NCBI GenBank assembly: GCA_012295275.1
Contig: CM022669.1
Coordinates: 3,596,001-3,660,000, forward strand
Direction: 5' to 3'
DNA from: Chrysomallon squamiferum
Lineage: Eukaryota > Animalia > Mollusca
Length of the DNA: 64,000 nt
Part shown: in pieces, positions 56,301 through 62,860 of the stretch
How the letters are laid out: each line of letters opens with the position of its first letter
How positions within the stretch are numbered: position 1 is the stretch's first letter
The notes under the pieces: generated by a model
Databases searched by the model: none
The model's input: the letters and a program-made list of their open reading frames with translations, nothing else
What the model was told of the DNA's origin: nothing
Program-made: the position numbers and the translations under genes

Positions 56301-59300
56301 ATTGATTGATTGACATACTTTTTTTGTTGATTTTTTGTCTCGTTTTCTTCGTTCTCTTTCTAGGATGAAAAGAATCAAGTCATCACACTAAACGTCTGGC
56401 TCGATCAGGTACTGAATAACACAGAACATTTAAATTTAAAAATTAATTTTATTTTTTATTTTTTTTTATACATCTAATAACCGTTAATATGATGAACTGT
56501 AGTCAAAACACCATTCGTCTGTACATCTGTCATTCTTCTGTTCATTCATCCTTTTCTAAGTTATTCATTTATTTATTCTTTCGTTCATTGTTTTTTTTTT
56601 TTTATCCCATACTATCATTGATTACACCATCAGTTATTCATTACAAAATTATATGAGAAATGGATTTCAAAATGAAAGTAGAACTTTTTATTATTTTATT
56701 ATTTCTTTAACGCTTTTGTTTTCATTTTGAAATTTATTTACTGACATAAAAACATCGCATGTACTCTCTGAGTCTTCATAATATATAACAATAGATTAGT
56801 AATAATATATAATTATTCATCAACTTATATTAATTAACTACTAATGTGTAAATAAATTATAATTTCCTTCACGTCATTGATGTATCACACTGGGTTAATG
56901 AAAATTTTCTGAAGTTTATATCTGATTATTTATTTTGTAAAAAGTGTACCATTAATATTTAAAAGCTAAATTAAATAATGATCAACTGCTTTAACCACTT
57001 TTTAAGTTTATTCATTTTGAAAATATTTTTATTTGATAAAATACTAAATTTCATTAATTTCACGAAGGCCTGTTCTGTTAATTGATTTTTAAGTTTATTA
57101 AAATATCAACTTTTATTTCAGGAGTGGTACGATGAAAGACTGAAGTGGGATAAACATCTGTTTTCAAATATATCTATCCTGAGAATCCCGTGTGATTTAC
57201 TTTGGCTTCCAGATATTATTCTTTACAATAGGTATATACATATATCAGTTTATAATCTATCCTTCTATTTATGTATCTATCTCTCTGTATATGTGTTTGT
57301 TTTATGAGTATGTGCGTGTGTATGTATGTATGTATTATATAAAATTTAATTAAAACAAAATGAAACTAGTTTAAACCATAAACCAGACATAACAATATTT
57401 AGGATAATGAAGTCATAACTGAGGAATTCGCTTACTTATTAGCTATCATTTAAAAGAGCCTTTGTATTTAACGTAACCCGATTTCCTCTCCTTTTATCGA
57501 ACTAATAACGGACATTCGGACTATAAAAATACCAAAATATCTCAGGCTGTTTCTGTTCAGTAATTGCAGTATATTACCTGCTAATCAGTTGAGACTTTTG
57601 CGCTCGTATAACTGCAGCCATGTCTTTATTATCATTTCCTCGAGATCAATTTGTCCTTATCCTGGACATATTTCCTATTTTCTAAATCCTAATGGCAAAA
57701 ACATATCGCAAAATTCATTATTTAGTGTCTTGAAAAGAATACTAAACTTCATTTTAAAAAGGCAATTTCAGTAAAGGGAAGAATATAACTTTAATGCTGA
57801 AATAATATTCAAGGCAAACATATATCAGCCAAAAACAAAAAAACAAAAAATTAATGGGCAAAGCACCTCTGCTTTATCTCCTTGGAAACACATGTGATAA
57901 AATATTTTATGATGGACAATTCCCAACGGAGGCATTTTTAATAGAGAGCAGTGATAGAATCAGGGCATCTTTTCTACATCAGGACTAGAAATTGTCTGTC
58001 TCAATTTTCTGTTATTTATAAAGCATATTATACTTAATACCATGTCTATTGATACCGAATTATATTGGATTTATATTATTCAAAGTATTTTATGTTTTAC
58101 AGAGGCAGATGCTCACGCATTTATATATACACACATAAAACAAACAGACACGCAGATACGCATCCAGTGTCTGAGTAGTTAATAGTATATTATCGAGGCA
58201 TCTAGTAATAGCTATTTGACAGCTCGTCCCTATATCATCTGCCACTGGCTTATCACAAGACAGTGTACTTTTGTAACGGCCGAAGTGATTACACGTGTCT
58301 TAAGTGATCCTGAACGTAACGCTTGCTCGTAACTCAGAGCCCGAACACACGATATATTTCATTACATTAGGAATTATCATGTTTCATTGTTTTTTTTGTT
58401 TTTTTTTTTCATTTATTCATGCAATTACTGTGACTCCTTGCCTTCATTCAGTAAATATTAATTATTAATAAACTGGAGAGAGGGAATAAAAAATAGAGAG
58501 AGAGAGAGAGAGAGAGAGAGAGAGAGAGAGAGAGAGAGAGAGAGAGAGAGAGAGAGAGAGAGAGAGAGAGAGAGAGAGAGAGAGAGAGAGAGAGAGAGAG
58601 AGAGCTAGTTTGTTAAAGTCTGATAATGACATAATCGAGATTTCAGAATCACGCTACGTTTTAAAAAATAACTTGTTACGGTCTCGTTGGTAATGTTACA
58701 TTTATATAGGAATGTATCGCCTTTTCAGTTTAAAAATTCAGTTTTTAAGTTTAATGCAACCGTTTGGTGGTATTTCGTTTTGAAATACTATCATATACTG
58801 ACGCTATTAAAGAGTGCTTATCTTTATATATTACTACTACTACTACTACTATTACTACTACTACTACTACTACTACTACTACTAATAATAATAATAATAA
58901 TAATAATAATCAAATAAACTGTTGACATTTATCTAGATCTTTTGTTTTTTCTGCAATAAAAGATATTTGAAATCAGTAAACACCAGTTTCTTAATAATAA
59001 CTAAATAAAAAAAAAATTAAAAGTTTTCTCAACAAACGCTCGCTTTGCTGACAACCATAACGTGCTGAAGGGTCCTAAAAAGTAATTGCAGGAACTTAAA
59101 AAACAAAAAACTTGAAATGTCGGCCAAGAAAACCGTGAAATAAAAATGAGCTCAGAGAAAAAAATCAAAAAAAAAAATCTTGAAAAACAATAGCATGAAA
59201 TTAAAAAAACACGAAAGTAATAATGAACTGCCTTCAGACGGTTTCAATCTGGTGCATGTAAGCTAAATTAAAAACACCGATGCTGCTATAATATTGGCTG

Positions 59301-61728: not shown

Positions 61729-62860
61729 TGTAAGTGTACCGACCAGCCTATTGAAAATAAACTAAACTAAAATTTTAATCTTTTTTTTAATCAAACAAAG
61801 CATCGTCGGCCTACAAAATGCTTTTCAATAGCATGCGCATAAAATATTTCTGAGAATGTTTGAAAAATATTTTTATAAACAACCACATAGCTGAACAACT
61901 ACTATTACTACTACTACTACTACTACTACTACTACTACTACTACTACTACTACTACTACTGCTACTACCACTACTGGTACTGTTATTACATCACATATTT
62001 AGACAGTTTAAACGCTGTTACTGTAGTTACTTTCTTTTTACTGTATACTTGTCTAATACTTTGTAGAGCTTATTGTAGCTTTGTTTACTTCTTACGAATT
62101 TCCAGCCAATATTATAGCAGCATCGGTGTTTTTAATTTAGTTTACATGCACCAGATTGAAACCGTCTGAAGGCAGTTCATTATTACTTTCGTGTTTTTCT
62201 AATTTCATGCTATTGTTTTTCAAGATTTTTTTTTTTTTGATTTTATTTCTCTGAGCTCATTTTTATTTCACGGTTTTCTTGGCCGACATTTCAAGTTTTT
62301 TGTTTTTTAAGTTCCTGCAATTACTTTTTAGGACCCTTCAGCACGTTATGGTTGTCAGCAAAGCGAACGTTTGTTGAGAAAACTTTTTTTTTTTTTTTTT
62401 ATTTAGTTATTATTAAGAAACTGGTGTTTACTGATTTCAAATGTTTTTTTTTGCAGAAAAAACAAAAGATCTAGATAAATGTTAAAAGTTTATTTGATTA
62501 TTATTATTATTATTATTATTAGTAGTAGTAGTAGTAGTAGTAATATATAAAGATAAGTACTCTTTAATAGCGTCAGTATATGATAGTATTTCAAAACGAA
62601 ATACCACCAAACGGTTGCATTAAACTTAAAAACTGAAATGTTTAAACTGAAAAGGCGATACATTCCTATATAAATGTAACATTACCAACGAGACCGTAAC
62701 AAGTTCTTTTTTAAAACGTAACGTGATTTTGAAATCTCGATTATGTCATTATCAGACTTTAACAAACTATCTCTCTCTCTCTCTCTCTCTCTCTCTCTCT
62801 CTCTCTCTCTCTCTCTCTCTCTCTCTCTCTCTCTCTCTCTCTCTCTCTCTCTCTCTCTCT
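61729..62860 (-). repeat. Right arm of a long inverted repeat (downstream of the nAChR stop codon)
   Basis: Inverted copy of 58495-59691. Roughly two dozen small differences by eye, plus microsatellite length changes; ends in (TC)n matching the left-arm (GA)n. Confidence 0.97.

Follow-up and report, generated by a model that had tools for sequence, protein, structure and literature searches.

Layout of the locus

The window, that is, the whole stretch of DNA analysed here, comprises 64,000 nt of Chrysomallon squamiferum (assembly GCA_012295275.1, contig CM022669.1, positions 3,596,001-3,660,000 of the forward strand), and all coordinates below are relative to it. It contains an intact gene for a nicotinic acetylcholine receptor (nAChR) subunit, which consists of six exons separated by GT-AG introns and encodes 466 aa with no internal stop. 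The last two exons of this gene are bracketed by an inverted copy of the intron that precedes them, and we confirm that this arrangement is real in the assembled sequence. The features are as follows, in order along the window.

50447-50606, minus strand: second inverted pair, upstream copy, with an A-rich run at its outer end
53243-53303, 54498-54634, 56364-56408 and 57122-57231, plus strand: nAChR exons 1-4, in frame with exons 5-6
54927-55083, plus strand: second inverted pair, intron-2 copy, beginning 5 nt after a (GA)n tract
58495-59691, plus strand: left arm, the 3' part of intron 4, made up of (GA)55 (58495-58604) followed by a core of 1087 nt that includes (CTA)n/(ATA)n and (TAG)n tracts; likely donor copy
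59692-59730, plus strand: unpaired end of intron 4 (39 nt), with the candidate branch point A59713, a short T tract and the acceptor AG
59731-60266, plus strand: nAChR exon 5, encoding the Cys loop, loops B and C with the vicinal cysteines, and the start of the membrane region
61076-61587, plus strand: coding part of nAChR exon 6, encoding the remaining membrane region and the cytoplasmic loop, and ending with the stop codon TAG
61588-61728, plus strand: A-rich post-stop stretch (141 nt), with AATAAA at 61618, 61632 and 61678
61729-62861, minus strand: right arm, an inverted copy in the 3' flank or a long 3' UTR, consisting of a 1042-nt core and then (TC)46 at 62770-62861; likely derived copy
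61730-61735, plus strand: donor-like hexamer GTAAGT, which follows TAT and marks the inner edge of the right arm; it pairs with 59685-59690 in the predicted duplex

A self-BLAST of the window returned a single long inverted match, 58514-59694 against 62861-61726, with 93.4% identity over 1187 columns when gaps are counted. Together with a global alignment, this match bears out the two arms that had been described in an earlier note on this DNA; only the end of the right arm, previously placed at 62860, needs a minor correction to 62861. The identity of about 97-98% that had been estimated by eye also holds: in the global alignment, the cores (58605-59691 and 61729-62770) agree at 1015 of 1036 aligned bases, or 98.0%. 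The cores differ by 21 substitutions and 8 gaps, of which the two largest fall in a (CTA)n tract (33 nt) and a (TAG)n tract (15 nt), and the longest exact run between the arms is 129 bp. On the outside, the arms end in the (GA)55 and (TC)46 tracts, beyond which the flanks are unrelated. The GC content of the arms (about 0.30) and their simple-repeat content are intron-like and resemble those of the rest of the window.

The spacer between the arms has the length of 2037 nt given earlier and does enclose exon 5, intron 5 and exon 6. However, it does not hold precisely these, since it also includes the last 39 nt of intron 4 and the first 141 nt beyond the stop codon; our measurement of the latter distance gives the same value as before. 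After masking of simple repeats, which occupy 19% of the window, the only repeats longer than 100 bp in the 64 kb are the arm pair and one inverted pair of 160 bp. Because just two such pairs exist, the arm pair is far beyond what is expected by chance.

The receptor gene

The bracketed exons hold the ligand loops and the membrane region, as previously proposed: according to Pfam, exon 5 codes for the C-terminal half of the ligand-binding domain and opens the membrane region, which exon 6 completes. The protein has the properties of an nAChR alpha subunit, namely the Pfam domains Neur_chan_LBD and Neur_chan_memb, a Cys loop, vicinal cysteines in loop C and an intact frame. Judged from its sequence, the gene is an alpha9/10-like nAChR alpha subunit of the gastropod type, belonging to an ACR-16-like mollusc clade; the closest relative with a solved structure is alpha7.

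Among 120 proteins compared, the top match is an 'alpha-10-like' protein (P0002) of the gastropod Gigantopelta aegis, which ranks first separately for exons 2-4 (81%), exon 5 (85% identical) and exon 6 (44%). In a quick tree of the window protein and 70 of the 120 matches, these two proteins are sisters (SH-aLRT 100) inside a gastropod clade. The cephalopod orthologue, from Argonauta, is 73% identical. Because all three exon groups rank P0002 first, we reject the idea that the bracketed exons were swapped in or inverted as a cassette, as well as that of a chimeric receptor. No paralogue exon of the receptor was seen in the 64-kb window. Two of the Lottia proteins (P0004 and P0061) have consecutive locus numbers, 152290 and 152289, and are likely an orthologue and a paralogue of the receptor gene; the adjacent numbers suggest a tandem receptor pair in limpets.

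The second inverted pair and the GA/TC tracts

The second pair surrounds exons 1-2 of the receptor gene, and its two copies match at 145 aligned positions, with 9 mismatches and 9 gap columns (94% identity when ungapped). Both copies carry A-rich tails and the motif TGACGTCA, which we take to be CRE-like. This pair may represent a small mobile element, or else a further copy made by template switching.

Both of the non-simple pairs longer than 100 bp are inverted, and both touch a GA/TC tract. There are 17 long GA/TC tracts in the window, and 2.3% of its positions lie in such a tract or at most 6 nt from one. The observation that two of two pairs touch a tract is suggestive, although it was made post hoc. 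GA tracts border duplicated segments in the sea-urchin Sp185/333 cluster (PMC3091723). That system, bounded by GA and GAT microsatellites, resembles the present one in having long GA tracts at the edges of the duplications; it differs in that the duplications described are of genes and segments in a multigene cluster, whereas here the inverted copy is non-coding.

Differences between the arms

Transitions account for 12 of the 21 substitutions, and the microsatellite blocks differ by the 33 and 15 nt noted above; the differences look like real mutation and not read error. Since transitions are present and whole microsatellite blocks differ, a fold-back of a single molecule is disfavoured, whereas a combination of two haplotypes is not.

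In 10 of the 12 transitions, the left arm has G or C and the right arm has A or T (p=0.039); when all strong/weak changes are considered, the numbers are 12 and 5 (p=0.14). In addition, the microsatellites of the left arm retain interruptions that those of the right arm do not have. Copying from the left arm (intron 4) to the right arm (3' flank) is thus weakly supported as the direction in which the duplication may have occurred. A gradient of substitutions along the arm (15 vs 6, p=0.08) disappears when clustered changes are treated as single events, which leaves 11 outer and 10 inner events.

Any transition between the arms yields either a G-U wobble or an A-C mismatch in the paired RNA. 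The earlier note had remarked that several of the differences would be wobbles, and 8 of the 12 transitions are indeed of the G-U type, but they do not form a special excess, since a split of 8 to 4 A-C mismatches is at the level of chance (p=0.39). Neither this split nor the spread of the difference events gives a sign of selection for pairing.

Origin of the inverted copy

We consider it somewhat more probable than the contrary that the repeat is a young, local, microsatellite-bounded inverted duplication, which was generated by one template switch during replication or repair and is likely without a selected function. The proposal that the arms are a local inverted duplication of intron DNA, already made from inspection of the letters, fits our results: at the arm termini and in the 64-kb window, we found no target site duplication (TSD), Rfam match, hairpin excess or third copy.

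Under this model, synthesis would quit its template just past the stop codon, at 61728; it would then run backwards along the other strand of intron 4, using that strand as template from 59691 as far as the (GA)n tract, and would finally rejoin the original template at 62862. The GA/TC tract would be the likely site of stalling or re-annealing. Overall, the process would correspond at the kilobase scale to the '3-2-1-4' geometry of the four-point model, and the arms do present a reverse-complement copy of a nearby sequence with an uninverted spacer between. The four-point events described so far span tens of bases and were deduced by comparison with an ancestral reference; their authors do not extend the model to switches over long distances (PMC5453318). 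The arms resemble a type 3-2-1-4 event in that a nearby upstream sequence recurs as its reverse complement, with an uninverted spacer in between. They are unlike it in that the copy is 1.1 kb long, which is nearer to the scale of FoSTeS/MMBIR.

Microhomology at the inner junction is at most 2 nt, and offset. The copy was likely tolerated because it contains no exon, and because the acceptor of exon 5, the candidate branch point and the first AATAAA motifs all lie outside the stem. The inner ends lie close against the exon block, at distances of 39 and 141 nt, a fit that can be explained only after the fact, by a filter of survival. Note that the origin, the direction and even the physical reality of the duplication rest on one assembled sequence.

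The last point raises the possibility, which we regard as unlikely, that one arm is intron 4 of the other haplotype, or an amplification chimera, that has been mis-joined in inverted orientation. The outer junction sits in a GA/TC tract of about 100 nt, which is prone to mis-joins. Allelic divergence could account for the 2% difference between the arms, as a marine mollusc may show about 2% between its two haplotypes. Both false duplications and MDA chimeras are documented in the literature. However, two false joins would be needed, one of them in the non-repetitive sequence at 61728/61729, and the window has no N gap. Moreover, a simple fold-back would yield near-identical arms with little or no spacer, whereas these arms differ by transitions and microsatellite blocks, and a second inverted pair is present in the same gene.

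It also appears improbable that the arms are two nearby copies, in opposite orientations, of a young non-autonomous mobile element of about 1.1 kb with a (TC)n tail and internal microsatellites. Such a reading would account for the fact that both ends are common to the two copies exactly, as expected of full-length elements. Besides, the smaller pair looks element-like, since each of its copies has an A-rich tail and folds into a mild hairpin (z -2.0 and -2.6; background SD 1.2). On the other hand, the arms themselves lack the corresponding marks. No TSD of at least 6 nt was found around either arm or the whole unit when 6-14-mers of more than two letters were compared at the ends, and there are no terminal inverted repeats within the arm. 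In the right arm, none of 13 windows of 120 nt folds better than its shuffles (z -1.44 to +1.42). The search of the arms against Rfam and the Pfam scan of one arm ORF gave no match, and no further copy or fragment of an arm occurs in the 64-kb window, with which the arms also agree in GC and simple-repeat content. The features of TIR, foldback or Pack-type DNA transposons are absent in that there is no TSD, the outer ends are GA/TC microsatellites and the enclosed exons are the gene's own; as for SINE-, MITE- and Helitron-like elements, the arms have no TSD, terminal hairpin or structural-RNA head.

Consequences at the RNA level

The two arms are predicted to form a duplex of 1129 pairs with an energy of -1845 kcal/mol. 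A function of the repeat at the RNA level, as first proposed, is nevertheless overstated. Since the left arm is intronic and the spliced mRNA carries at most one arm, the duplex could exist only before the removal of intron 4; because it needs unspliced intron 4, a cytoplasmic Dicer substrate is unlikely. What we predict as a possible side effect is a transient nuclear duplex in unspliced read-through RNA, which would be open to generic hyper-editing by ADAR. Read-through past the end of the gene is plausible. Pol II normally continues beyond cleavage sites, and the three AATAAA motifs after the stop codon are a weak signal, since this hexamer occurs once per 263 nt in the window.

Recoding is not expected because the arms pair with no coding sequence; in ECS-type recoding, an intron pairs with the edited exon, and the arms hold no exon sequence. 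In the editing duplex of insect nAChR alpha6, with its intronic ECS (PMC1919356), an nAChR pre-mRNA likewise forms a duplex that uses an intron, but there the intron pairs with an exon and recodes it, whereas here the partner of the intron is the 3' flank, and the exons are left in the loop.

The acceptor of exon 5 and the candidate branch point A59713 fall in the unpaired 39 nt, outside the stem; A59713 is a presumed branch point on the basis of the consensus. Another candidate, CTTAC at 59689, is probably not a branch point, as two AGs (59697 and 59708) separate it from the true acceptor. Beyond the stop codon, the only strong donor is the GTAAGT at 61730, from which a back-splice to the acceptor of exon 5 would give a predicted circle of 1190 nt.

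In our opinion, there is little chance that the repeat acts as a functional RNA structure, in which a read-through duplex of more than 1 kb is edited or retained, or drives this Sry-like 1190-nt circle, so as to lower the receptor output. The materials for such a role are available in the predicted 1129-pair duplex, the weak evidence of termination given by the three AATAAA motifs, and the position of the GTAAGT 1 nt inside the right arm, which hints at a donor for a Sry-like circle. This hexamer would fall by chance no more than 5 nt from a given point with a probability of about 0.001, a figure that was calculated post hoc, and it is the hexamer of three of the five native donors in the gene. 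In addition, inverted repeats favour back-splicing and skipping (PMC4288412; PMC8330042). However, the GTAAGT is base-paired within the stem, is preceded by T where all five native donors have G at position -1, and is merely the complement of left-arm intron sequence. Furthermore, the fraction of wobbles is at the level of chance, the difference events are evenly spread between the outer and inner halves, the spliced mRNA has no partner arm, and the duplication appears too young for an established role.

The mouse Sry circle and intronic reverse-complementary matches (PMC4288412; PMC8330042) offer a comparison. In both cases, long inverted repeats flank a coding block, and here the acceptor lies free just inside one arm and the donor-like motif lies at the other. 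Unlike in Sry (PMC4288412), the donor-like motif is within the predicted stem, read-through is only presumed and the exons are the terminal ones of a multi-exon gene.

Consequences at the DNA level

As another possible side effect, rare recombination between the arms is predicted to flip exons 5-6 and produce a null allele; a transcript of the flipped gene would probably code for just the first 117 residues in frame. Unless flipped molecules come to light, the repeat would count as a mutational liability and not as a switch. Its layout, with one intronic and one extragenic near-identical inverted copy, such that recombination between the two would break the gene, is that of F8 int1h-1/int1h-2 (PMC7507428); inversion polymorphisms caused by inverted repeats are also described in human (PMC3961182). 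There are differences from F8: its spacer is about 126 kb (PMC7507428) as opposed to 2 kb here, the longest exact run here is 129 bp, and the inversion here is a prediction from layout.

The above consequences can be combined into a broader scheme, in which one young duplication serves as an off-switch by supplying both a stem of more than 1 kb and, as a complement of the copied intron, a new GTAAGT donor at the base of that stem. The switch would operate through hyper-editing, the 1190-nt circle or flipping of the exons, and GA tracts would repeatedly seed structures in the one gene, including the second pair around exons 1-2. We regard this scheme as a long shot.

Finally, it is hardly credible that the arms are a scar left by an inversion with staggered breaks, or by paralogues exchanging an exon cassette. 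Of 29 Drosophila inversions, 17 carry inverted duplications, which reach 1.9 kb (PMC1885836). However, such a scar has its spacer inverted relative to the ancestral flanks, whereas here exons 1-6 are co-oriented in a continuous reading frame, every exon group has the same orthologue as its best match in the set of 120 proteins, and no partner 5' exons are seen on the minus strand in the 1.1 kb visible downstream in the window.

Related sequences and neighbouring features

The arms have no match in 31 metagenome loci, a weak test of conservation in relatives as these loci are short and distant; the best full-length match to exon 5 among them is 72%, so that none is close. Inverted matches of at least 40 nt occur in 9 of the 31 loci, the longest being 127 nt at 81%. 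Searches of the literature for an inverted repeat in a mollusc nAChR intron and for dsRNA editing of gastropod nAChR found nothing, with thin coverage of subscription journals, which weakly suggests that the case is unreported so far.

At present, the locus is a clear case of an inverted duplication that is recent, bounded by microsatellites and situated in a neuronal gene. At the site of the arms, one should expect inversion alleles or collapsed mapping. Should editing or a circle be shown in RNA, the locus would offer an uncommon opportunity to follow how a gene for a ligand-gated channel acquires a regulatory RNA duplex in a single step.

Directly past the right arm, 62862-63326 contains a GC-richer stretch of 440 nt, which ends in a run of 22 A, like a retrocopied 3' end. 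Its first 94 codons were considered as an ARPC2-like remnant cut at 62862. This candidate is unsupported: the match to P34-Arc (E=0.011) is below the Pfam cut-off and that in PDB has E=1.4, no homologue backs it, it does not continue in other frames, and an unrelated family scored alike on the opposite strand. If upheld, the remnant would have set the direction of copying, because the right arm would truncate it.

On the other side of the receptor gene, a multi-exon gene on the minus strand (about 44900-50074) matches NCU-G1/GLMP, and this gene and the receptor gene are arranged head-to-head. Some 40 nt before the start of the GLMP gene is an E-box-like CACGTG, which is presumably CLEAR-like. 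The segment 50600-50680 may be a first exon that is non-coding, with GTAAAG as its donor near 50672, and at the far end of the window, 63960-63979 is a pyrimidine tract ending in CAG; these two segments are candidates for UTR exons, either of the receptor or of a host transcript reading through both inverted pairs. Further away, a 312-codon open frame with 48% GC lies on the minus strand at 12955-13890 and is probably an exon of another gene.
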